64,000 nucleotides of DNA from an uncultured Methanosarcinales archaeon (GCA_964609455.1 CAZSRD010000003.1:8200-72199), one strand, 5' to 3'; positions 3,134-15,894 are shown, counted from the first letter of the stretch. Numbers and translations are program-made. The notes: a model not told the origin generated them from the letters alone.

Positions 3134-3730
3134 TTGTTCTTAACAGTTATGGGTGGACAAGACAGGTCTTTGGTAAGTCTTTTGACTATAGAAGAAGATA
3201 CTATGGCACGTGAGATTGCAGAGGAATTAGTTAAAACTAAATTTCTATCTGAACATAGATCATATGTATGGTCTGATTATAGCCATAGACTTATAGACTT
3301 TATTATGGGTGGTATCTATGAAGATTATGACGGCAAGACTGATAGGCCAGAAATAGATGGGATAGTTGAGGCAATATTCCGTTTTCGTGGAAATGAGCTT
3401 AGGCCAATTTCAGAACTTTATTTTCCTTATATTTTTTTGCTTCAGTTAAATGGGGATATGGAAGATCCAGACTTAGCGGCTTATGCTCCAATAGTTAACT
3501 ACCTTAATTCAGAGAAAGGACAGGCTCATATGTTGGGTGCTATGGGCGCTGTTGGTGTTCCTTTACCTAGTCATATCTGGTATCTTATTGGTGTGGACAT
3601 AGCGATTAAAGCTGTTGAACGTGGCATTATCAAACCCAAATGGGAATTAGACCCCGTGACAAATAGAAGAGAACCTGCTTTTAATTATGCTCCTGCAACA
3701 GCAAGGGTTCAACCTGTTGAAGCTCGGTAA
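3134..3730 (+). CDS. hypothetical protein (true start may be the internal Met at MAREIAEEL)
   Basis: Long ORF with coding-like composition and no recognisable motif; ends 20 bp before the distal att repeat, so it is host DNA. Confidence 0.4.
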   Translation: MFLTVMGGQDRSLVSLLTIEEDTMAREIAEELVKTKFLSEHRSYVWSDYSHRLIDFIMGGIYEDYDGKTDRPEIDGIVEAIFRFRGNELRPISELYFPYIFLLQLNGDMEDPDLAAYAPIVNYLNSEKGQAHMLGAMGAVGVPLPSHIWYLIGVDIAIKAVERGIIKPKWELDPVTNRREPAFNYAPATARVQPVEAR

Positions 3731-3749
3731 CTTTCTTATAATAAAAATA

Positions 3750-3781
3750 AACGCGCCCAGGAAGATTCGAACTCCCGACCT
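3750..3781. repeat. att repeat, distal copy (duplicated tRNA-Arg 3' segment)
   Basis: 32/32 identity with 14380-14411; flanks diverge immediately on both sides. Confidence 0.85.
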
Positions 3782-3916
3782 AGAAACATTCGAAGAACTA
3801 TCCAAAGCCAAGTCCTTTAATATCAGCTTCTCGACGTATTTACTTATATTTGTACGCTTTTTCTTTAGGCTTTTACACACTTCGCTTTCAATCGTTAAGT
3901 TAAGTCTTTGTTTCAT
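3782..3916 (-). CDS. integrase N-terminal fragment Int(N), 45 codons, reads into the att repeat in the same frame as Int(C)
   Basis: Minus-strand ORF MKQRLNLTIESEVCKSLKKKRTNISKYVEKLILKDLALDSSSNVS continues through the repeat as RSGVRIFLGA, identical to residues 3-12 of the integrase ORF at the other end. Confidence 0.6.
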
Positions 3917-4128
3917 ATTTGCTCAATTTTATGCGCATACTTTACTTTATAAAACTTTGTAGCCTTCATTCAGAGGCGGAATAGTCCATCAAGTTAATAA
4001 GATAAATTGGACATAGTACCTCGGGAGAATTTTTAGGGTTTTTCAGAATCTTTGGTTAACCAATCACCATAATTCAGCTATTTCTGCGTAAATATGCTAT
4101 TTTTCTGTAAGTTACACTAATTCTGTGT

Positions 4129-4272
4129 ATTATGGGCGCGTGTTTTAGAATTGTGGCGCAAACCACAACCATACGCCATAATAATTGTGGCATAAACTTA
4201 ATAACAGTGACACATTACGAAGATTGATGGTTTTGTTTTTTGGCATTATTTTATGGCGTAGTTTTGTGGCTT
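4129..4272. promoter_or_regulatory. iteron-like repeat cluster, candidate replication origin / control region of the element, upstream of the rep-like gene
   Basis: At least five copies of T(T)RTGGC in both orientations: TTATGGGCGCG 4129-4140, palindrome TTGTGGCGCAAACCACAA 4151-4168, ATTGTGGCAT 4184-4193, TACGCCATAA 4172-4181 with its inverse TTATGGCGTA 4251-4260, TTTTGTGGCTT 4262-4272. Confidence 0.35.
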
Positions 4273-4568
4273 ATTTTGTTGTTTTATCGACGACAAGTAT
4301 ATCTTAGAGAATAGAAATATTTATATACTAGCTTACCCTATTAAATTACATCGACGGATAAAAATTCACTTTGAATAAGTAACATAAACGAGGTGAGACC
4401 AAGCAAAAAAGATGACGCGCCACCAAGTAAAAAGAGGTGCTGATTCTTTAAAAGTATGAATATTTTGTGAAGTGCATTAGGCTAATGTAAGTTAGCGTTA
4501 GCTCTAAAGAAGAATAAAACAAACAATAATCTAGCGATAGCTATAATCGTTAGATAGAGGTATAAAAA

Positions 4569-6011
4569 ATGGATAAAGAAAAAAAAGATTGGGTAGAATT
4601 TAAGAACCCAAAAACAGGACATAAAGTAGGTTATATAACCAAAAATGGAGACAAAGACGTATATGTAAGTGAAAGGACTAAAGACCACTATTTTAAGAAG
4701 TATTGTGGTTTTGGAATATCAGAAGATGTGTTGAACCAGCTTGAAAAAGAAAACATAATAGAGATATATCTTGAATGTAAAGAATTGGATGAAATATTCA
4801 AAACAACCGTAAGCGAATTCAAGGGATGTAAATCCTATAATAACATAGATGAAGATAAACAAAAAGTAATGCCTTTGCAACAGTTCGAGAAGATGATGAG
4901 TAGAAAAATATTCAGAGACTTGGTAGAGACATTAAAACAGTTTATTAGTGTGAAAAAAGAAGAATATCACACATTAGCTCTATGGATAATGCACACTTGC
5001 TTAGTTAAAGAATTTGGTGTTACCCCATATATACGCTTAGTGGGTATGCCTGGAACTGGGAAATCAACAATAATGAGACTTTGCAGTAAATTAGTAAGAT
5101 ATGGAATAATGGGCTCATTTAGTGAGGCTTCCATCTTTAGAATGAATAAAGAAGCACTACCTTCCTTGTTCTTTAATGAATTTGAACATATAAAAGATAA
5201 CAAATTAATGATAGAGATACTGAACAATGGATATGAAGATGGACAAATGGTAAGTAGAGTGGATAAAGATGGGCAGGTAAGTTTTTTTGACCCATTTTGC
5301 CCTAAAATGTTTGGAACTGTCTATAAAGAGTCCATTCCTACTTTAGATAGTCGGTCTATCTGGATAAACACGTTTAAATCTCCAAGAAAATTAAGGAGCT
5401 TGATAGGAAAAGATACAACTAGAGAAGAAAGATTGATGAAGTTACAACTAAAAATATATGAATACATAACCCTTAATAAAAGCAATATACTGGGGTTGCA
5501 CAGCGAAATAGAAATTCCATTAAGCAACAGAGCAGAACAAATAATTAAGCCCTTGGCTACTATTGAGCGATATCTAAATGTAGATGAACTTGTAGTGCAA
5601 ACATACAAGGATAAAATATATTATTCCTTGGTAAAATCTATGCAAACAGACACAGGTCTAAAAGTAGCAAGAATATTGTATGAACAAAAAGGCAAAATCT
5701 CATTGAAGGAGTTAACGAAGAAAGCTAATGATGAGCTTGAATACCCAAAACATGAGAAATACTTTGGTGGTGTGTTAAGAAACATTGGTTTTAGTGATTA
5801 CATTAAAAGACAAGGAGATGGAACAACAATTGAAATACCAGTGAAACAAATAATAGACTTATTTGAGGGACGTAACATAGATAAAGAAATGTTAGACCGA
5901 ATTTCTGGTGAACATTGTGAACGTAGTGAACGTCCAGAAGAAAGTAAGGAAGAACAAGAGACAGGCAGCCCACCTCAGTTAGGTCTATTTAAGGAGTTTG
6001 CTGAGATATAA
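4569..6011 (+). CDS. P-loop NTPase, putative replication-initiator/helicase-like protein of the element
   Basis: Walker A GMPGTGKST and downstream hhhhNE/DE-like LFFNEFEH; 480 aa; sits directly behind the iteron-like region. Confidence 0.5.
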   Translation: MDKEKKDWVEFKNPKTGHKVGYITKNGDKDVYVSERTKDHYFKKYCGFGISEDVLNQLEKENIIEIYLECKELDEIFKTTVSEFKGCKSYNNIDEDKQKVMPLQQFEKMMSRKIFRDLVETLKQFISVKKEEYHTLALWIMHTCLVKEFGVTPYIRLVGMPGTGKSTIMRLCSKLVRYGIMGSFSEASIFRMNKEALPSLFFNEFEHIKDNKLMIEILNNGYEDGQMVSRVDKDGQVSFFDPFCPKMFGTVYKESIPTLDSRSIWINTFKSPRKLRSLIGKDTTREERLMKLQLKIYEYITLNKSNILGLHSEIEIPLSNRAEQIIKPLATIERYLNVDELVVQTYKDKIYYSLVKSMQTDTGLKVARILYEQKGKISLKELTKKANDELEYPKHEKYFGGVLRNIGFSDYIKRQGDGTTIEIPVKQIIDLFEGRNIDKEMLDRISGEHCERSERPEESKEEQETGSPPQLGLFKEFAEI

Positions 6012-6393
6012 TATATTTTTTTATTTTTTATTATATATTAATAATAATATAATTATATATTTATATATATTAATTCTTATATATGATATAATGTTCACAA
6101 CCTTCACTAAGTTCACTAATGCTGTGGGTTAGATTTTAGACACGTTTTCTCGTCCCAGAGTATTATTGTCAACTTGTTTAACGGATTGCAAGGGTGAGCT
6201 CCCCTAACGTTTTGGTAACACTTGGGACAACTGTCATAATAACAAGAGAAGAATAATTGGTAATAGTTTTGCTACGTGTGACATTCACTTTTTAAAGATA
6301 TAGTTAATTTCACTCGGGAAGGCTACTGGTGCCTATGTCTAAATTGAAAAATGGGTATAGTGCCTGTCTCGTGTCTTTGGGTGTTTAGGAAAA

Positions 6394-7422
6394 TTACCCC
6401 TTTAAACATGCGCTAAAACAGTTTTTATACTCCCATTCCGTCCAATCATTAATGGATTGATAGGTTCTACAAGCAGCACTACACCATTTAATTATATCAG
6501 AATCATCTAAACCTGCATTTTCTTCTGTAGGTGTTACTAATACATTATTAGATGGGGGATTGTAAGACCTCACTGTTGGCGTTTCACTTACTGTACTTGT
6601 TTTTTTCTCATCAACATCACATTTACCATTCTCATTTTTATCATTACACACATAAACTTCTGTTAAGCATTTATCAAAGGCGGTATTATTGGTGTATACA
6701 TAAAAAGTAATCTCTGGAATGTTGCCATTTCTTATCAATTTTAAGTAAACATTTAGTTTATCTGTAATACTTCTTGACTGTTTTTCTGTAAGACTTATAG
6801 ATTGTTTTTCTGTTAAATTTTCGCCACTTACCCAAAACTCAAGTGATTCTGTATAAAGATTCATCAATCTAAACGAAAACCCTTTGATAACCATAGCCTC
6901 TTTACCAAATTCTTCCCGTTTTATCCACTTACCAACATAACAAAAACAATCTTCTTGGCACGATTCATTTATTGCACAGATTCCATCGCCGCAACAAGGA
7001 ATGTTTTCTTGATGAATACATCTTTTTGAATTATAATCATACGAATCTGTGGTACATACATTATTATCCTCACAACTAGGACAATCTTTAGATTTAGTAT
7101 ATTCTCCATTTTCACATATTTTGTTTCCGTCACAAGGGGTAATGAGGGCGTATTCACACTTATTTTTATCATTGTTATAACTATCTTTAGTACATTTATC
7201 ATTATCGTTACAATCCTCCCTAGCTACACTAATTTGATTTACTGTTTCTACAGTCTTTATGGATGTTTTAGTTTCTATACTGCCCTTGCTTGAACCTTTT
7301 ATTGAAGAACTATTTTTATTTAAATATTTGCCCAAAATTACAATAAGAGAGAGTACAATCAAGATTATTATTACTGTTTTTACCACACTATATACAGATA
7401 CTTGCTTTTTTATTTCTCTCAT
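6394..7422 (-). CDS. membrane-anchored Cys-rich secreted protein
   Basis: N-terminal TM/signal anchor (VVKTVIIILIVLSLIVILG) followed by many spaced Cys (CxDGIC, CEDNNVC, CQEDC patterns). Confidence 0.55.
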   Translation of the reverse strand: MREIKKQVSVYSVVKTVIIILIVLSLIVILGKYLNKNSSSIKGSSKGSIETKTSIKTVETVNQISVAREDCNDNDKCTKDSYNNDKNKCEYALITPCDGNKICENGEYTKSKDCPSCEDNNVCTTDSYDYNSKRCIHQENIPCCGDGICAINESCQEDCFCYVGKWIKREEFGKEAMVIKGFSFRLMNLYTESLEFWVSGENLTEKQSISLTEKQSRSITDKLNVYLKLIRNGNIPEITFYVYTNNTAFDKCLTEVYVCNDKNENGKCDVDEKKTSTVSETPTVRSYNPPSNNVLVTPTEENAGLDDSDIIKWCSAACRTYQSINDWTEWEYKNCFSACLKG

Positions 7423-7432
7423 TCAAACCACA

Positions 7433-8071
7433 TTATTTTTCTTCCAACACATTCTTCTTTTCTAAATATTCTTTTTTAGTGAGCTTACCTTCTGCAAATT
7501 GTTTCTTCAAGATATCTAAATAGCTTTCTTTTTTTACACTACTTGGTTTTGACGTTCTTCTTAAAATCTCCAACTGGGCTCTTAATGAAGCTGCCTTGCT
7601 TTTTCTTGAGCTAGAAACTATAGTAGCAACTATGAGTAAAATAATGCCTGATAGATACAGGAACAAACCAAGAATTCCTAATATTACTAAAACTATCACT
7701 GCAATACTAACCTCTTCCAATTCTTCTATTTCTTCCTCAATCCTTTGTTCATTTGGCGATAAAGAATTCCATCTTTCCCCCTCTTTTTCGTATTCTTTTT
7801 CTTCTTTTTGTGATTCAATATCTTTAGCACAACGTATACAATAACCTTCCATTTCATAATCTTCAGCAGTATCCAACCAACCCCCCATCTTGTTTTTACA
7901 ATTTTTACATCGTTTCGTTCTAATTTTACTACTATCCTTTTTTTCTTTCCATTTATCATAACATTCTTGGCAGATTTTAATTTTAGTTTTGTCATCATCA
8001 TCTAGCATATCGTGTAATCTATCTCCAAAGACAATTGTTTTACCACATTTTGCACAAGTTATGTTTGGCAT
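7433..8071 (-). CDS. zinc-ribbon membrane protein with C-terminal SHOCT-like segment
   Basis: N-terminal CxxC...CQEC ribbon (MPNITCAKCGK...IKICQECYDKWKE), second CxxC pair, one TM helix, C-terminal KKQFAEGKLTKKEYLEKK resembling the SHOCT domain. Confidence 0.5.
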   Translation of the reverse strand: MPNITCAKCGKTIVFGDRLHDMLDDDDKTKIKICQECYDKWKEKKDSSKIRTKRCKNCKNKMGGWLDTAEDYEMEGYCIRCAKDIESQKEEKEYEKEGERWNSLSPNEQRIEEEIEELEEVSIAVIVLVILGILGLFLYLSGIILLIVATIVSSSRKSKAASLRAQLEILRRTSKPSSVKKESYLDILKKQFAEGKLTKKEYLEKKNVLEEK

Positions 8072-8087
8072 TTTTAACCTACATTTT

Positions 8088-8324
8088 TCATTTCAATTTT
8101 GCTTTTTCTAACCTTAATTCTTCTAATCTTGAATGTGCCTTATTTGCCCCAATCGCTCCACTAATACACATTACTAACCCCAATATCCATCCAATAAAAG
8201 GTATGAATAAAAAAAAGATGCCTGCAACAAAAACGACAATTCCCTTAATATTTTCTTTCTCCGCATCCGCTTCCTGTTCATTTATTTCTTTGATTGTTTC
8301 TTTTTTACCCATCTTGTAACTCAT
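8088..8324 (-). CDS. small membrane protein
   Basis: 78 aa, two predicted TM helices. Confidence 0.35.
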   Translation of the reverse strand: MSYKMGKKETIKEINEQEADAEKENIKGIVVFVAGIFFLFIPFIGWILGLVMCISGAIGANKAHSRLEELRLEKAKLK

Positions 8325-8446
8325 ATTTTACCTATATCTCTATAGGGGGATACATACTATTTAAACTTTTCTTTAATTAATATATTCTAACCACTTAATA
8401 TATTCTAAATACTTATTTAATAAGAACTACTGCATAAAACCTAGTT

Positions 8447-8650
8447 ATGCTTAAATCTGACAAGCTTAAACTTGAAATTCTTAACTTATTAAAAGGGGGA
8501 GATATGAGCTTAGGGCAACTAAGAAAAGCTACTAAAGTAGCACATCATTATACCCTTAAGAATGCCGTGGAGTTCTTGGAAAAGCTGAACTTAGTGGAAG
8601 TTGTTGAGAAAAAAGACAAGCTTAAAACTAAGATTGTGAAGCTTAGATAA
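8447..8650 (+). CDS. small winged-helix DNA-binding protein
   Basis: 67 aa, helix-turn-helix-like core (MSLGQLRKATKVAHHYTLKNAVEFLEKLNLVEV) followed by a basic wing. Confidence 0.5.
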   Translation: MLKSDKLKLEILNLLKGGDMSLGQLRKATKVAHHYTLKNAVEFLEKLNLVEVVEKKDKLKTKIVKLR

Positions 8651-8683
8651 TAATTAGGGGTATGCTTTAGTTATTATCTGTTA

Positions 8684-8974
8684 TCAACTCAATGCCGCCC
8701 AATTCATAAGACTAATAAAACCGCCAATTATCCATAAAACAAAAGCTACTAATATTATGTTCCTAATGGTTCTCACATCACGTGCTATGTTTACTCCTAT
8801 ATTTTCTAAAGGTTTAGTCATAATATCACCCTCCAAGTTTCCTTCTTTCCATTTATCATGGCATTCTTGGCAAATCTTTATTTCAGTTTTGCCATCATCA
8901 TCTATCATCTCATAATATGCCTTATCCGAAGAAATATTCTTTTTACCGCATTTATGGCATTTTATGTTTGGCAT
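8684..8974 (-). CDS. zinc-ribbon membrane protein, paralog of 7433-8071
   Basis: N-terminus MPNIKCHKCGK...DDDGKTEIKICQECHDKWKE is near-identical in pattern to the 7433-8071 N-terminus; C-terminal TM helix. Confidence 0.5.
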   Translation of the reverse strand: MPNIKCHKCGKKNISSDKAYYEMIDDDGKTEIKICQECHDKWKEGNLEGDIMTKPLENIGVNIARDVRTIRNIILVAFVLWIIGGFISLMNWAALS

Positions 8975-8994
8975 TTTATTACCCTTAAATCTAA

Positions 8995-9918
8995 TTATTT
9001 AAACCCATTAGTTAGGTTAGTATCAAACCAAACCATAACAATGGTATCTTTATAATCTATTAATTTAACTCTCATTTCTTTTGGATTGTTCATCCCAGCG
9101 ACACCCAAATCAACAACTACTTTTCTATTTATAACCTCTTGATTCTCTATAAATTCGCTTAAATCAACTTCCTTATAAATTCTGAATTTTTCTTCTACTT
9201 TATCAACAAACTCCACGCTTAAATCGGGGCTTTTGTAAGCACTTCCCTGAAGGTTATAAACTGAGAAAGTAATATCTTTTAATTTTCCATATATGTCTGA
9301 TTTTTTCTCAAAAGTATACCCTTCAATTCTTAGAGTAACTCCATCTTGAGTGTTTTCATAATATTTCTCTGGAATTTTAGTTGTTGGAACATTATTAACA
9401 CCCGTATTTTCTTTATCATTTTGACTCTCAGGTATAACTGGAGCAGTAATATCACTTTTACTTCCTGTGACCTCAGAATCACTAATCTGGAGCTTATATG
9501 TTTCAAATCCTAAACAAGCATCATCATAAAAAATAATTTCAAATGGGCTTGTTTGTTTTGGTTTCAACGGGTGAATTGATGTGTAAGTTGTTTTTGTACA
9601 AACTATCTTTCCAGCTTTATCATACATGGTTGCTATTACTTTTGGATAAGCTATATCCTCGCTACCTTGATTTTTTACTTCACCAACTACATGATAATTA
9701 AGATACCTTGGGTCTGGGTTATTATTAGAACTTATAGAATGAGATAATATACTAATGTCTTCTTTTGCTTTCGATTTGCTTTCCTGAGTAAGACTTGGTT
9801 CAACATTACTTTTGGTTGTAATACCAGAATCTTGGGTCTTTGAAACACTAGCACACCCAATTACAAATGTACTTAAGAATAGAATCAACACCAATAAAAC
9901 GATTAACACTTTTTTCAT
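8995..9918 (-). CDS. secreted lipoprotein-like protein
   Basis: Signal peptide with lipobox-like VIGC (MKKVLIVLLVLILFLSTFVIGCAS), Ser/Thr-rich linker, 307 aa. Confidence 0.5.
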   Translation of the reverse strand: MKKVLIVLLVLILFLSTFVIGCASVSKTQDSGITTKSNVEPSLTQESKSKAKEDISILSHSISSNNNPDPRYLNYHVVGEVKNQGSEDIAYPKVIATMYDKAGKIVCTKTTYTSIHPLKPKQTSPFEIIFYDDACLGFETYKLQISDSEVTGSKSDITAPVIPESQNDKENTGVNNVPTTKIPEKYYENTQDGVTLRIEGYTFEKKSDIYGKLKDITFSVYNLQGSAYKSPDLSVEFVDKVEEKFRIYKEVDLSEFIENQEVINRKVVVDLGVAGMNNPKEMRVKLIDYKDTIVMVWFDTNLTNGFK

Positions 9919-10208
9919 TCAAACCACCCCTATTTATTCCTTTTTTTATCACGCTTATATAAGATAAAACCAATTAATAAAAAACCAACAAGAACAATCA
10001 ATGATAAACCACTTACTGTTGCCACCCCTTCTAAAAATATCCAAAGAAGAATTAATAGTAAAATAAGAAGTATTGGTAAAACAATAAAGATTCCGAATCC
10101 AATTTTAACACCATCCGCTACCGTTGCTATTCAAACCACCCCTAATCCATAATATATGCATAATTATACAGATGTTCTATATAAACTTTATGTGTATTAT
10201 TGTGCAGA

Positions 10209-10422
10209 TATGGCAAGAAAGCCCCTTACAAAAGTAGTGGAACAAATCAGAGAAATTCTACAAAAAGAAGGAGAGCTTTCAATTAGACAGATTTCTATTA
10301 AGGTTAAGTCTGAGTGGAGAACAGTTGCTAAGGCGTTAGAGTTGATGAAGTCTTTGGGAACTGTGAAAGAGAGAAAGGGGACAGAGACGAAAAGAGAAGA
10401 AAGGCTGTTTAGGTTGAAGTAA
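10209..10422 (+). CDS. small winged-helix transcriptional regulator (the listed ORF extends to 10156; start at MARKPLTK is likelier)
   Basis: wHTH-like ELSIRQISIKVKSEWRTVAKALELMKSLGTV followed by a basic tail. Confidence 0.45.
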
Positions 10423-10459
10423 AGAAAGCTTTTTATACGTAACATTCTTATCTAGTTAT

Positions 10460-11644
10460 ATGTTAGAAACGTATAATCTCTTCATCGATACTAATTTTAT
10501 TAGAAAAGGGGAACAGACAGAATTAGAATTACCTCTTTCTACTACGTATATTAAAAGTTTACTTGATTTTAGAGATAAGAATAAGATAGGAGATAGAGTA
10601 AAGATTATTATCCCAGAGATGGTTATCAAAGAGATGGTTTCATGGCGAGTAGATGCAATAAATCAACAAATTGAAAGTTTAAATAATACCCATAATAAGT
10701 ACAAAAAGCACTTTAATATAGATGGAATAGATATTGAAAAGTTTAACAAATACGACTATCGCAAGGAATTTGAAGAGAAGTGTATGCAGTTTGTTAAAAA
10801 ACATAAAATAACTATTGCAAAAATCCCAGAAATAAATGTTAACAACCTTATTGAAAGAGCAATTACAAAAAAACCTCCATTTAGTGGAAAAGATAAAAAA
10901 GGAGATAAAGGGTTTAAGGATACTATAATTTGGTATTCTATAATTGCTTATTGTAAGGATAATAAAGAGGCAACCAGTTTTTTATGCACTGATGATACAG
11001 ACATTAAAAAAGAAGTACTAAATGAAGAATTAAAGAAATTGAATGGCAAAGGTTTAACTTTTTTATCAGAACCACAAGAAATAATTGAAAAGTTAACTGT
11101 TAAGTTGAAACTTGAAAAAGAGAGTTGGCAGAAAGAGATAGAAGCAATTAAGGATACTGTTAGACGTAAGCTAGGGATTATTATAGAGGAGTTATACAAA
11201 AAGAACTATCAAATTGGGGAATCTTCAATGTATTATGGGGTTGACAGTATCTCTTCAAGGCAAATAATTTCTTATGAAATAGAGAATATCCGATTTATTG
11301 AGGTGTGGCGTAATGTTGATAGAGGTAGTGACGAGGTTACACTAAGACTTGAACTAAGACCAAAAGATATAAACGATTTGAATATTCCCCCCACAAGGAA
11401 AAAACTAAGCAGTTTTGATTTTGGTTCATATGAAGAACCATTACCTATAACTCCGAGTGTATATGGGTCTACATTGTCAACCTACACCCAGGTTATGCGT
11501 CCATTTACTTTTGAGCCAGTTGGTTATAAGAATACAGTAGAAATTGAAGTTAAGTTAAAGGTTAATAGGCATTTGGAAGAAATTGAAATTGTTGAGATGA
11601 AACCTCAATCTCCATTATTTGACCCCTTTTACAGAATTTCTTGA
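10460..11644 (+). CDS. PIN-like domain protein with long C-terminal extension
   Basis: N-terminus LFIDTNF, then conserved acidic positions (IPEMVIKE, CTDDTD) in PIN-like spacing; 394 aa; no other motif. Confidence 0.35.
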   Translation: MLETYNLFIDTNFIRKGEQTELELPLSTTYIKSLLDFRDKNKIGDRVKIIIPEMVIKEMVSWRVDAINQQIESLNNTHNKYKKHFNIDGIDIEKFNKYDYRKEFEEKCMQFVKKHKITIAKIPEINVNNLIERAITKKPPFSGKDKKGDKGFKDTIIWYSIIAYCKDNKEATSFLCTDDTDIKKEVLNEELKKLNGKGLTFLSEPQEIIEKLTVKLKLEKESWQKEIEAIKDTVRRKLGIIIEELYKKNYQIGESSMYYGVDSISSRQIISYEIENIRFIEVWRNVDRGSDEVTLRLELRPKDINDLNIPPTRKKLSSFDFGSYEEPLPITPSVYGSTLSTYTQVMRPFTFEPVGYKNTVEIEVKLKVNRHLEEIEIVEMKPQSPLFDPFYRIS

Positions 11645-11779
11645 AATGACACTATTACAACCCAACCCATATGACCTTAATCCATAGCCTTAACTTATGG
11701 TTTTTTATCTTTCTTATGGCTAGGCTTACAACCGTAACAAAGATAAACACCAGTAGGAATTTAAGGTAGAGGTTCATCA

Positions 11780-12457
11780 TTATTTTCTAATAAATCCTAT
11801 AATTAATGAAATAAATGCAACTATCAAAGTAATGAGAGCCACTACATACATTTTATCATTATACCATTTAACTCTAGAATTGATAACCCCTATAAAATTA
11901 GGTAATAATGTACCTTTTCCAATTCTTTTAGATAAATAATACAAAGATAAAATGACTATAAGGAGAGATATAATAAAAATTGAATGTATTTTTACAATAA
12001 ATATAATTCCAAGTATCGCCCCAATCAGAACAGATAATAACCCCTCAAAAAAACCGTATATCGTAGGATATTGGTGGATAAATGAATAGCAGGGTTTTCT
12101 TTTTTCTAAGAATTGCCTAAGCTCTTCTTTTTTTCCTTCTACCCATACTTTATCCGAACCTACTACTCCAATTTTATTGGCATTCTTATTTAACGAAACA
12201 GTGATAGATTCTTTTGTATTCTTTCCCATCCAAAAATAGATATATAAGTCGAAAATTTTATCAGGTAAATCATATGTTGAAAAATTTTTAGAATTTAAGT
12301 CATCTATTGTATATTCATCTTCATGAATACTAGCACTAGGTTCATCAAAACTTTTTGTATATCTTTTTTCCTTTTCAACTAATTCCATTAAGTCTATAAT
12401 ATCTTTCTTTGTAAGTTTAACTGAACTAATTTTAATAGGTTTATCGTATCTTTTCAT
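11780..12457 (-). CDS. membrane protein (soluble N-domain, C-terminal TM helices)
   Basis: 225 aa ORF; C-terminal half is strongly hydrophobic. Confidence 0.4.
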   Translation of the reverse strand: MKRYDKPIKISSVKLTKKDIIDLMELVEKEKRYTKSFDEPSASIHEDEYTIDDLNSKNFSTYDLPDKIFDLYIYFWMGKNTKESITVSLNKNANKIGVVGSDKVWVEGKKEELRQFLEKRKPCYSFIHQYPTIYGFFEGLLSVLIGAILGIIFIVKIHSIFIISLLIVILSLYYLSKRIGKGTLLPNFIGVINSRVKWYNDKMYVVALITLIVAFISLIIGFIRK

Positions 12458-12520
12458 TCAAACGCCCCTGAGATATAACCAAAAAGAAGCAGAATATTTA
12501 AAGGTTTCTCATCTAAGACC

Positions 12521-12823
12521 TTATCTAATCCTCCCTATAATAGTTTTTATTGCATCCCCTACAATACCTGCTATCCCAGAAGAAACAACTCCTGCAAAGT
12601 AGCCTACAAAAAGATTTATGAATTGCTCAACAATTAAATCTAGGCATTTGTCTCCCATGTTTAAAAAACAAGGAATAAGGGAAACAACAAACACTATAGT
12701 AGGCATATACCCCCCTATTTGACCAGCTTTTCTTAAATCTCTTTTTATATCCTTAGAGAAATAGTATCCGAATCCAAGACTACCTAAAATGTCTATGAAC
12801 AATATAATTGAGTTGATTTCCAT
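12521..12823 (-). CDS. small membrane protein
   Basis: 100 aa, hydrophobic and Gly-rich. Confidence 0.35.
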   Translation of the reverse strand: MEINSIILFIDILGSLGFGYYFSKDIKRDLRKAGQIGGYMPTIVFVVSLIPCFLNMGDKCLDLIVEQFINLFVGYFAGVVSSGIAGIVGDAIKTIIGRIR

Positions 12824-12838
12824 AATAATCTACATTCC

Positions 12839-13447
12839 TTATTTATTAGCTCTCAAAATAAAGCTTACTATTTTACAACCGAACCCCCCATATTTTTCAT
12901 AACAATAAGCCCAGTTTTGATAAACCCACCTATAACTATTGGTAACAAAACCGTCTTTTGCCGCAATTTCAACCAAAGACTTTCCCCCAAGACGGTTACA
13001 ATGTAATTGAGCAATATAATCTTTTTTTGGTAATGTTTTAAATTCTTCCTCAAAATTACAATAATAAAAAATCTCCTTCATATTAAATTTAATACCATGC
13101 CTCACACCATGTCCAAAAATATATGCCTCTTTAACTTTTTCATCACAAATAATCCTTTTGAAAGTATCTTTATCTACCCATTTATAGACCTTAAATGGCT
13201 TACCATTATTTTTCAAATACATAATCAACCAAGGTATCCCACTACTATAAATGGGAAATCTATCTATAAAAAAACGCCTTTTTTCAACTAAAATTATTGC
13301 TGTGCACCCCTCCTGCTTTAAAGATTCGGAATTGGATTTAATATACTTCCAACCCCATAAAAAGTTGATAGTGTCTAGAATCAAAAGTACAAAAAATATA
13401 AAAAGGAGATAAAGACCGATTACTAAAACAATACCTGCTATACTCAT
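12839..13447 (-). CDS. membrane-anchored hypothetical protein (the listed ORF extends to 13543 and would overlap the integrase 3' end; the internal Met MSIAGIV is the likelier start)
   Basis: N-terminal TM helix then a Cys/Trp-rich soluble domain. Confidence 0.4.
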   Translation of the reverse strand: MSIAGIVLVIGLYLLFIFFVLLILDTINFLWGWKYIKSNSESLKQEGCTAIILVEKRRFFIDRFPIYSSGIPWLIMYLKNNGKPFKVYKWVDKDTFKRIICDEKVKEAYIFGHGVRHGIKFNMKEIFYYCNFEEEFKTLPKKDYIAQLHCNRLGGKSLVEIAAKDGFVTNSYRWVYQNWAYCYEKYGGFGCKIVSFILRANK

Positions 13448-13511
13448 AAAAAAGATTATCCTACACGAATATTTATAATTATCTAATCTATAAAAACCCA
13501 GTTCTTGATAA

Positions 13512-14417
13512 CTACTTAAACAATTTATCCAACTCTGGCACAACTTTACTATACCAAAAGTCTGCCTGTTGGCTGCGAGCTAAATAATGATTAGCTGAAA
13601 CAGACCTATTCGACCTTCCCTGTATGAAGTCTGCAACAGATTCTGGCACATTATTGTATAATAAGAAGTTATAATGCCATTTTCTAAGGTATTTTAGTGA
13701 AAAACTACACTGTTTTTCTTTAAATCTCTGCCTTAGTGCGTTGTATGTATTAGTAACCTGCTTTAGTTTAGTGTAGACAAACAGTGGCAGATAGATATTG
13801 TTGATGTTTTTAGTGTGGCGTAAGTTGGACACTCTGTACGCCACAAAGTTAGTGCAAACAGTAAACTTATCTATATTATAGTTTTTGAGAAAATCCAGAC
13901 ACTCTATGTACCTTATCCCAGAAGTCATGAGAACTAAAAAGACTATTTCCAGTACACTATTGCCTTTAATCTTATTATAAGCGATTATTACTTCGCTATC
14001 TGTAGGAACGTATACATCTGGATTACTATACGGCACCTTTAGAAACTGCCTATACTTATTGACAACTTCAAAAGGTAATTTATCAAACTTCTCACAGTAA
14101 TTAAGATACAATCTGGCTGTTTTTACTAGGCTGGATATGCCTTTTTTCTTATCTTCTATATACTTTTGAAGCTCTAAAGGGTTTTCAAAACGCCTGTTTT
14201 GAAGATGTTTTTTGAAATACCAGTTCATATGGTCTATATGCCCTTTTGAGAAATTCTTTAAAATGATATAATCAAAAAACTCTTTGTCAGGTGTAAAGCA
14301 AACTGCAAAAGTATGCGTATGATTTAACTTAGAAATCTCACTATTTTTCGCTTTGTCGTCTAAAGCCTTAGAAGAATGTAACGCGCCCAGGAAGATTCGA
14401 ACTCCCGACCTTCTCAT
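13512..14417 (-). CDS. int: SSV-type tyrosine integrase, catalytic Int(C) part; its first 12 codons are encoded by tRNA/att sequence
   Basis: Abuts the tRNA-Arg target; translation begins MR then reads the att repeat as RSGVRIFLGA; C-terminal region has recombinase-like motifs (VSNLRHT, GRSNRSVSANHYLARS, terminal Tyr); joins in frame with the Int(N) fragment at 3782-3916. Confidence 0.7.
   Translation of the reverse strand: MRRSGVRIFLGALHSSKALDDKAKNSEISKLNHTHTFAVCFTPDKEFFDYIILKNFSKGHIDHMNWYFKKHLQNRRFENPLELQKYIEDKKKGISSLVKTARLYLNYCEKFDKLPFEVVNKYRQFLKVPYSNPDVYVPTDSEVIIAYNKIKGNSVLEIVFLVLMTSGIRYIECLDFLKNYNIDKFTVCTNFVAYRVSNLRHTKNINNIYLPLFVYTKLKQVTNTYNALRQRFKEKQCSFSLKYLRKWHYNFLLYNNVPESVADFIQGRSNRSVSANHYLARSQQADFWYSKVVPELDKLFK
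14380..14411. repeat. att repeat, proximal copy (inside tRNA-Arg)
   Basis: Identical to 3750-3781; covers the tRNA from the variable loop to the discriminator base plus 2 nt. Confidence 0.85.
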
Positions 14418-14456
14418 TAGGAGTGAGACGCTCTATCCAAGCTGAGCTACAGGCGC
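14382..14456 (-). tRNA. tRNA-Arg (anticodon CCU), 75 nt, no encoded CCA
   Basis: Reverse complement folds as a cloverleaf: acceptor GCGCCTG/TGGGCGC, D stem GCTC/GAGC, anticodon stem TCTCA/TGAGA with loop CTCCTAA, T arm GGGAG-TTCGAAT-CTTCC. Confidence 0.9.
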
Positions 14457-14490
14457 ATACAATAAGGTAAATGAGAAATTGTATTTAAGT

Positions 14491-15117: not shown

Positions 15118-15139
15118 TTTATCACCTTTGATTATAAAA

Positions 15140-15244
15140 AGCCTCCAGGGAGAGTTGCACTCCCGACCTTCTGATTGCTTGCATAAAAGCTACAAGTTTC
15201 GTCGTTTAATAACTCAGACGCAATAGCTACTATGCTACGGAGGC
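15140..15244 (-). tRNA. intron-containing tRNA (~32-nt intron in the anticodon loop; anticodon probably UAU(Ile) or UAC(Val); unusual T-loop TGCAACT and discriminator U)
   Basis: Reverse complement has acceptor stem GCCTCCG/TGGAGGC, perfect 5-bp anticodon stem TCTGA/TCAGA separated by 39 nt (7-nt loop plus intron), T stem GGGAG/CTCCC, variable loop AGGTC. Confidence 0.55.
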
Positions 15245-15279: not shown

Positions 15280-15894
15280 TTACGCTTCCATCCCATACAA
15301 TTTTGGGGTGAATGGCTCTGGTGTTGGTACAAAAATTCTCAAATCCAGGTATTTTTTGATAACGCTTGTAAGCCTATAGATCTCTCTCCACAACATCTTC
15401 TCATGTTTTTCTATATCTTGGGAGATTATCCTTCCTTCATATAGGTCCTGCCAGTGTTTTAAGAGCCAATGTTCTTTCCATTCCTGCCTATAATCTGTTT
15501 GAACAGCCCCATTAAACATGATCTCTAGTTCGCCCCATTGAGCCTTAATCTTTTTTCCTTGGTGCATTATCTCCCTGTCTTGTATGTACACACCATGGAA
15601 ATCAATATTTAACCTATATCTTAGGTATCCTGAGTATCTCCCTTCTGGCCTTTTGAATAAACGCCAGTATATCCATAGCTCTTTCCCTCCAGAATGGAGG
15701 CCTTTTTGATGGAATTTTTCCAGGTAGAGGGTTTCTATTGTGCTGTGTAATTTGTCAGGACTTTGGCCCACAGGGCTTACTTCACCAAACCATTTTTCTT
15801 CAACAAGATACTCATGCATCATTATATAGAGATTTTTAAGATTAAATACATCCTTAAATTTCACTTTGGTTTCTGGAATTTTGTATTCTGGCAT
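15280..15894 (-). CDS. hypothetical Trp-rich protein
   Basis: 204 aa ORF with 11 Trp and somewhat higher GC than neighbours; no motif recognised. Confidence 0.4.
   Translation of the reverse strand: MPEYKIPETKVKFKDVFNLKNLYIMMHEYLVEEKWFGEVSPVGQSPDKLHSTIETLYLEKFHQKGLHSGGKELWIYWRLFKRPEGRYSGYLRYRLNIDFHGVYIQDREIMHQGKKIKAQWGELEIMFNGAVQTDYRQEWKEHWLLKHWQDLYEGRIISQDIEKHEKMLWREIYRLTSVIKKYLDLRIFVPTPEPFTPKLYGMEA

Follow-up and report, generated by a model that had tools for sequence, protein, structure and literature searches.

We analysed a 64,000-nucleotide stretch of archaeal DNA (GCA_964609455.1, CAZSRD010000003.1:8200-72199; hereafter the window, with positions counted from its first letter), which very probably carries a 10.6-kb cryptic plasmid-like element of a Woesearchaeota-type archaeon, integrated by a 'suicidal' integrase of the SSV (Sulfolobus spindle-shaped virus) type whose gene is split at its own attachment site, attP. 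The element body extends from 3782 to 14379 (10,598 bp). At its distal end lies the 5' part of the integrase gene, int(N) (3782-3916, minus strand), and at the other end the 3' part, int(C) (13512-14379, minus strand), next to the tRNA-Arg(CCT) gene that is the integration target.

The element is bounded by an exact 32-nt direct repeat at 3750-3781 and 14380-14411 (AACGCGCCCAGGAAGATTCGAACTCCCGACCT on the plus strand), whose identity ends at both borders; by our own arithmetic, about 1e-10 such 32-mer pairs are expected by chance in 64 kb. The proximal copy is the 3' end of the tRNA-Arg(CCT) gene, the sole tRNA called in the window, which lies on the minus strand at 14381-14457 according to ARAGORN and at 14382-14456 according to Rfam (RF00005, 60.4 bits). 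It comprises tRNA nucleotides 46-75, that is, the variable loop, T-arm, 3' acceptor strand and discriminator, plus 2 nt downstream. The tRNA gene is intact after the insertion, and the distal copy, identical at 32 of 32 positions and read on the same strand, duplicates its 3' 30 nt together with the 2 nt at the junction with the host flank (the attL side). Both junctions are real: seven further contigs, assembled independently from JGI and ENA samples, reproduce them at 100% identity, three from JGI (L001-L003) on the attR side and four from JGI or ENA (L091, L093, L094 and L095) on the attL side. On the minus strand, the attP junction is predicted to read ...GAATGTTTCT + att + TACATTCTTC... 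and that of the empty chromosomal site, attB, ...CTAATGAGA + att + TTATTTTTAT....

The split integrase gene and its relatives

On the minus strand, a 301-aa open reading frame (ORF) at 13512-14417 begins MRRSGVRIFLGA, and an 89-aa ORF at 3647-3916 consists of 45 codons (3916-3782), the decapeptide RSGVRIFLGA and 34 residues of read-through into the flank. An initial annotation had stated that both ORFs read the repeat as RSGVRIFLGA in the same frame, and that joining them across it would yield one open ORF of 344 aa. We reproduced both observations, the second in silico by joining 3916-3750 to 14379-13512, which gave a single open frame of 344 codons. In this frame int(N) contributes a CcdA-like ribbon-helix-helix (RHH) domain (residues ~1-39) and the start of a linker, and int(C) supplies the remaining linker, followed by a core-binding-like helical domain (~14022-14309) and, up to the stop codon (13512-14), the catalytic domain (13515-14021). 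Gene callers annotated a 238-aa int(C) only (P0001), and no database record was found for the 89-aa read-through product.

The joined protein is homologous to SSV-type tyrosine recombinases, as had been proposed. Residues 179-337 match PF16795 (Phage_integr_3, 'Archaeal phage integrase') with E=1.3e-35 and 123 bits against a cutoff of 27, and the sole significant matches in a sequence search of the PDB were three structures of the SSV1 integrase catalytic domain (3uxu, 3vcf and 4dks; E ~1e-10). In the PDB sequence alignment R212, K285, R288, R311 and Y321 fall on R211, K278, R281, R304 and Y314 of SSV1, the last of which is the nucleophile established by experiment. The signature R...KxxR...Y, published for SSV1-type integrases (PMC8371274), is present as R212, K285-Y-L-R288 and Y321, with lysine replacing the canonical histidine. 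R212, K246, K285 and R288 do not vary in an alignment of 88 homologues, R311 and Y321 hardly do (at least 90% conserved), and among 12 close relatives all six are invariant. The C-terminal recombinase motifs quoted in the initial annotation do belong to this active site, although R212 and KYLRKW had been overlooked.

The predicted fold points to the same family. An AlphaFold2 model built from the 88-homologue alignment has a mean predicted local distance difference test score (pLDDT) of 87, with residues 80-344 forming a confident two-domain body (pLDDT mostly above 90). When this body was searched with Foldseek, the SSV1 integrase catalytic domain came out on top (template modelling (TM) score 0.85-0.86, root-mean-square deviation 2.5 Å), followed by the two-domain tyrosine recombinases XerA, lambda Int, XerH and Cre. 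Every sequence-defined feature of the class that could be tested was found, supporting the assignment of the window integrase to the SSV-type (type I, or 'suicidal') archaeal integrases. The kinship to the SSV1 D335 family suggested at the outset holds as catalytic homology, but the closest characterised enzyme, to judge by sequence, is the integrase of the pT26-2 type.

The N-terminal fragment has an identity of its own. Residues 2-36 of the joined protein show a weak Pfam match to the CcdA ribbon-helix-helix family, and the int(N) fragment alone matches PF07362 (CcdA) with E=9.4e-05 and 23.1 bits against a cutoff of 22.4; all nine N-termini examined, that of pT26-2 included, match the same family (best E=6e-8). 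In the AlphaFold2 model residues 1-39 reach a pLDDT of 73-94, with helices at 11-19 and 24-38, and residues 40-69, among them the att-encoded residues 46-55, stay below 50. The att-encoded peptide is thus predicted to lie in a disordered linker, which among relatives is poorly conserved and of variable length. Because the peptide sits in so tolerant a region, varied tRNA segments could be accommodated in either orientation without damage to the protein. The RHH domain of Int(N) is probably a multimerisation or arm-type DNA-binding module, an identity that fits the multimerisation role reported for the N-terminal extremity (PMC8371274). We did not find the RHH/CcdA assignment mentioned in a 2021 review of archaeal tyrosine recombinases. 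We also considered the fragment as the CcdA antitoxin of a toxin-antitoxin pair and rejected this, since a toxin partner is missing and uninterrupted homologues have the same domain fused to the integrase.

These uninterrupted homologues carry much of the argument. P0022 (343 aa, 46% identity, 99% coverage) starts MRKKLNLTIDEKLYKILKRKKYNISRYVENLI where the window protein starts MKQRLNLTIESEVCKSLKKKRTNISKYVEKLI, and P0100 and P0114 (328 aa) cover 100% of the query, the precomputed annotation of P0100 being PF07362 + PF16795. On contig L004, the P0022 gene encloses a 3' portion of a tRNA-Gly(GCC), ~50 nt that run from the anticodon arm through to the acceptor end; this segment occupies the same place in the ORF as att does in the window, and small element-like genes flank the gene. 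There is no complete tRNA on the contig and no terminal overlap was seen. From these features L004 reads as an attP inside an intact int gene.

All eight of the nearest genomic relatives (44-58% identity) come from metagenome-assembled genomes (MAGs) of Woesearchaeota. At six of the eight a tRNA called by ARAGORN abuts the int(C) start on the same strand (Glu-TTC twice, Lys-CTT, Leu-CAA and Arg-TCG twice); at a seventh, L008, an intron-containing tRNA missed by ARAGORN was read by eye. At L009 a 45-nt tRNA-like segment (T-arm and acceptor end) stands at both element ends, and no full tRNA was identified there. The distal element end fell within the fetched DNA in four relatives, and in each a homologous RHH N-fragment runs into the second att copy in the phase of int(C): L008 (72-nt att, element of ~9.7 kb), L009 (45 nt, ~5.8 kb), L012 (16 nt, ~3.6 kb) and L014 (17 nt, ~7.4 kb). 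Together with the window, an in-frame split is therefore seen in five of five integrated elements. By tblastn the N-fragment matched L004, L008, L009 and L012 with E values of 4e-11 to 3e-8.

Embedded tRNA segments among the relatives come from Gly-GCC, Lys-CTT, Arg-TCG, Glu-TTC and Leu-CAA, and in pT26-2 from Arg-TCT in antisense. The segment is read in sense in the window and the Woesearchaeota loci (GVRIFLG, GSNPG) and in antisense in pT26-2 and in P0100 and P0114 (GPGGIRTRDL, GGPDLNRRT), so the orientation of int relative to its target tRNA is not fixed within the integrase family. The initial annotation had taken the 45-codon fragment for a genuine integrase N-terminus and had placed attP inside the int gene. 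The relatives bear out both proposals: the fragment is fused to the rest of the protein in P0022, P0100, P0114 and pT26-2 and stands at the distal repeat of four other elements, and uninterrupted homologues carry a partial tRNA in the ORF, alongside four further elements split in frame.

Proposed mechanism and competing explanations

The steps we propose, like recombination activity itself, are inferred from the established biochemistry of the family (PMC8371274, PMC7253208). The free circular element would express a 344-aa pT26-2-like 'suicidal' integrase made up of an RHH domain, an attP-encoded disordered linker, a core-binding-like domain and a catalytic domain. As a candidate int promoter we infer the TATA-box-like TTTTATAAA at 3946-3954 (minus strand), read from the sequence ~30-38 nt upstream of the int(N) ATG. 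The enzyme would bring attP, part of the sequence that encodes its own linker, into synapsis with the identical 3' end of the tRNA-Arg(CCT) gene, and strand exchange through the nucleophile Y321 would take place within the 32 nt of identity. The product would be tRNA::int(C)-element-int(N)::att, in which the tRNA is complete again and the integrase gene is split. Excision would rebuild int, most likely by means of an intact related integrase acting in trans, by analogy with SSV2, pTN3 and pT26-2. Tolerance of the linker may also allow target switching, in that different tRNA segments could occupy the att place; the position of the att peptide in a disordered linker fits the model of int(N)/int(C) reshuffling proposed for target switching by Badel et al. 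(PMC7253208).

Several observations weigh against integration by a self-splitting integrase or against parts of it. The repeat is stop-free in all three frames, which leaves the frame match alone a 1-in-3 chance and weakens the frame argument; the split-gene interpretation must therefore rest on homology. Searches for a free or empty form returned little. The exact att 32-mer had no match in viral contigs, and in metagenome contigs it matched one contig, L007, which belongs to another organism, has an unrelated flank and is neither attP nor attB. The metagenome-contig collection did not return the source contigs either, which makes this a weak negative. Aligning the integrase with viral contigs yielded two distant loci only (20% identity), and in a collection of 5.8 billion proteins there was no near-identical full-length 344-aa protein, the best full-length match being at 46%. 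Profile scans recognised no capsid, packaging or conjugation genes in the element, for which reason it is best called a cryptic plasmid-like integrative element, and the replication function proposed below for its 480-aa P-loop protein draws on weak similarity. A 10,658-bp Logan contig, L092 (SRR8437217_16799), corresponds exactly to 3752-14409 and has identical 30-nt ends. We rejected it as a circle and do not count it as evidence of one, because a k=31 graph break at the 32-nt repeat explains it.

Contigs of the L092 type call for caution when circularity is assigned to integrated elements. Another contig, L082, ends inside the tRNA; we rejected this as a sign of excision, since a tRNA shared with the L007-like organism explains the break.

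One competing explanation is coincidence: the 45-codon ORF would be an independent RHH regulator or antitoxin (CopG/CcdA-like), and the 301-aa ORF a complete, unsplit integrase with attP outside the gene, in the pNOB8 or lambda arrangement. The three open frames of the repeat, the match of the N-fragment to an antitoxin family and the gene callers' choice of just the 238-aa int(C) would all suit it. However, the same N-terminus is covalently part of P0022, P0100, P0114 and the pT26-2 protein t26-1p, all five integrated elements are in frame, no toxin partner adjoins the N-fragment, and outside the tRNA the int(C) ORF lacks a start of its own, its first residues being tRNA sequence. We consider coincidence very improbable, the full-length homologues having in effect refuted it. 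An assembly artefact, that is, a chimeric contig joined at a shared tRNA-like 32-mer, seems to us barely credible given that seven independently assembled contigs reproduce the two junctions, even though tRNA 3' ends are common to different organisms in the samples (L007) and contigs from one assembler are broken precisely at the repeat (L092 and L082). The possibility that the element was inserted by the proposed mechanism but is now a fossil, permanently trapped and with the two gene halves decaying as pseudogenes, we regard as doubtful while taking it seriously. The searches found no episomal copy, attP or attB, no second integrase able to act in trans was found in the 64-kb window, and a relative described below, L084, has an apparent leftover partial tRNA end at the same site. 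On the other hand, the att copies show no difference, the joined ORF is unbroken and retains all catalytic residues, and the element is 100% identical across assemblies from several samples, which together suggest a recent insertion.

A further alternative is that the split is self-sufficient and the integrase not truly suicidal, with Int(C), translated from the tRNA ATG or from M107, catalysing excision alone or with the 89-aa Int(N) product. The mechanically called int(C) ORF does reach an ATG at 14417 within the tRNA. The initial annotation had noted this codon, supposing that the catalytic part had gained it on integration; it is present at 14417-14415, 6 nt upstream of the repeat, but it was not acquired, since the host tRNA supplies it: position 40 closes the anticodon loop, and positions 41-42 belong to the anticodon stem. 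It is therefore no selected feature, and relatives in other tRNAs have other accidental upstream starts or an ORF that reads through the whole tRNA. Processing of the tRNA 3' end would, moreover, be expected to remove the ATG from the message, and the two SSV2 fragments, Int(N) and Int(C), are reported not to associate, multimerisation requiring the N-terminus (PMC8371274). Against these points stand the position of int(C) directly downstream of, and co-directional with, the tRNA promoter, its open frame from the ATG, the stop-free state of both fragments, the identity of the att copies and the in-vitro recombination, at much reduced efficiency, reported for the truncated SSV1 and SSV2 Int(C) (PMC8371274). 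Production of Int(C) from the tRNA-embedded ATG is possible, but nothing in this analysis supports it, and we judge self-sufficiency unlikely. A bolder idea, which we think distinctly unlikely, is that the Woesearchaeota integrases are a separate DPANN 'suicidal' clade always co-directional with the target tRNA, in which the tRNA promoter drives the catalytic Int(C) and the int promoter makes a free 89-aa RHH protein as repressor or assembly partner. If this were true, integration would rewire rather than kill the gene, providing a built-in switch for integration state and a route to self-excision.

Element cargo, host and neighbouring sequence

The body of the element differs from its surroundings in composition and content. 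Its GC content is 31.5%, against 37.0% in the left flank and 35.3% in the rest of the window, and no 10.6-kb host window falls below 33.1%. Nucleotide synteny with the relative L084 resumes exactly at 14380. Housekeeping genes (pyruvate phosphate dikinase/phosphoenolpyruvate synthase, 2-hydroxyacid dehydrogenase, adenylate kinase, a YchF-type GTPase and a U32 peptidase) occur solely outside the element, and inside it are ORFans, genes for two small winged helix-turn-helix proteins and for two zinc-ribbon membrane proteins that are paralogues, others for secreted or membrane proteins, and one each for a PIN_12 protein and a P-loop protein of 480 aa.

The last of these, a P-loop NTPase with the Walker A motif GMPGTGKS (4569-6011, plus strand), is a candidate for the replication helicase of the element. 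It has homologues within other elements of the same integrase family, in Woesearchaeota (L008) and in DHVE2/Aciduliprofundum (L017, L019 and L022), as well as weak similarity to the helicase part of the large ORF of the Sulfolobus plasmid pXZ1 (E=1e-6) and a weak PHROG primase match. There was no Pfam match, the PDB sequence search gave P-loop noise only, and nothing matched it in pT26-2 or other Thermococcales plasmids in PLSDB. The 394-aa PIN_12-domain protein (10460-11644, plus strand; PF16289, E=4.1e-23) is cargo and has no PADLOC match; PADLOC likewise returned nothing for seven ORFs, namely six cargo ORFs and a flanking 198-aa ORF. Spindle-virus hallmarks (a VP1-like capsid protein and a DnaA-like AAA+ ATPase) had no Pfam or PHROG match among 10 of the 12 element ORFs of at least 60 aa besides int; the other two (12521-12823 and 12839-13543) had no match in a Pfam scan alone, and the sensitivity of profiles is limited for DPANN viruses. 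In the zinc-ribbon paralogues, both on the minus strand (7433-8071 and 8684-8974), a common zinc-ribbon N-terminus (MPNI.C.KCGK...KICQEC.DKWKE) precedes transmembrane segments. Direct repeats of 74 nt and 37 nt lying 900 bp apart (81-85% identity) mark the pair as a duplication within the element.

The host is Woesearchaeota-like, of the DPANN archaea. Its YchF is 66-83% identical to MAG proteins named Woesearchaeota, Nanoarchaeota or Pacearchaeota, and 100% identical to a protein on contigs of up to 83 kb. In L084 (GCA_028279655.1, JANQNH010000018.1), whose YchF is 82% identical to that of the window, a tRNA-Arg(CCT) adjoins a convergent 2-hydroxyacid dehydrogenase gene with no element in between. 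The more distant contig L007 has an identical tRNA in the same tRNA/dehydrogenase arrangement, again with no element. Neither is an exact empty site, since the window also has the 198-aa ORF between attL and the dehydrogenase gene. This ORF (3134-3730, plus strand) has no Pfam or PADLOC match, is absent from the corresponding position in L084 and L007, and could be lineage-specific or the leftover of another mobile element.

Two further observations concern tRNA sequences. In L084 the orthologous tRNA-Arg(CCT) (7400-7640) has a 13-nt intron after the anticodon loop, and a second partial tRNA 3' end (GGGAATCCTCCTGGGCGCG) lies ~115 nt downstream, nearer in sequence to the end of the window's tRNA than to that of L084's own; an earlier integration at this site, followed by deletion, may have left it as a scar. 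In the window, a third 'copy' of the repeat at 15138-15169 (78%) is not an att remnant but the T-arm and acceptor end of a separate tRNA-like sequence (15140-15244, minus strand) between the adenylate kinase gene and an ORF at 15280-15894. Its acceptor stem has 7 bp (GCCTCCG/CTGGAGGC), the loop of its T-arm is unusual (TGCAACT), and ~35 extra nt lie near the anticodon region. ARAGORN, with or without its intron mode, and Rfam both missed it; it is probably an intron-containing or non-canonical DPANN tRNA.

Known systems and significance

The 'suicidal' integrase design is already known and well described in other archaea, and the comparison with pT26-2 is the most instructive. By BLASTP, residues 2-344 of the window protein align with residues 22-351 of the pT26-2 integrase (t26-1p, GU056179.1, Thermococcus sp. 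26/2) at 30% identity (E=1e-28). Both proteins have an RHH-like N-terminus, an att-encoded linker, a helical domain and a PF16795 catalytic domain in the same order; they also agree in where attP falls within the ORF and in having a tRNA-Arg gene as target. They differ in that the att-aligned segment of pT26-2 is the reverse complement of the 3' part of tRNA-Arg(TCT), whereas the window and its Woesearchaeota relatives read the tRNA in sense, with int(C) downstream of and co-directional with it. The hosts also differ, a hyperthermophilic euryarchaeon on one side and a DPANN archaeon from metagenomes on the other, and the putative replication protein of the element has no match in pT26-2. Badel et al. 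(2020, PMC7253208) showed Int-pT26-2 to be both suicidal and fully active. The window protein is nearer to uncharacterised DPANN sequences (44-65% identity) than to this enzyme.

Other systems share fewer features. The SSV1 integrase D335 (Fuselloviridae) has the same catalytic fold (TM 0.85) and the R...KxxR...Y signature, and its gene, too, is split on integration into a tRNA-Arg gene. With fusellovirus integrases, however, only the C-terminal 55-63% of the query aligns, at ~30% identity, and neither structural genes of fuselloviruses nor genes for a DnaA-like ATPase were detected in the element. Small integrative plasmids of Sulfolobus, pXZ1 and the pRN family, are similar in being plasmid-like and, for pXZ1, in the weak match of the 480-aa protein noted above; this similarity is partial, and no primase-polymerase domain was recognised in the 480-aa protein. 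Plasmid pXZ1 also carries an SSV-type integrase. NitEve-E3 of Thaumarchaeota is, as described, another cryptic element without viral hallmarks whose SSV1-like integrase is split on integration, although it belongs to a different archaeal phylum (Krupovic et al. 2019, PMC6563490).

What we add is modest. Self-splitting integrases have been described mainly from hyperthermophiles (Sulfolobales, Thermococcales and Archaeoglobales), and the 2021 review of archaeal tyrosine recombinases ascribes the system to hyperthermophilic archaea and makes no mention of DPANN. Mesophilic cases are few: outside hyperthermophiles, split SSV1-like integrases have been reported from Methanosarcinales (five) and, with NitEve-E3, from Thaumarchaeota (PMC6563490). 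New here are the DPANN/Woesearchaeota host lineage, with a sizeable clade there that uses many tRNA targets and reads them in sense, the RHH assignment of Int(N) and the placing of attP in a disordered linker. An RHH Int(N) followed by a disordered att linker may help to explain how these integrases switch targets, and leaves the known mechanism unchanged. The occurrence of the clade in Woesearchaeota and Nanoarchaeota MAGs, at tRNAs with at least five anticodons, extends the phenomenon to ultrasmall symbiotic archaea, and the DPANN integrases provide a handle on the nearly unknown mobilome of those archaea.

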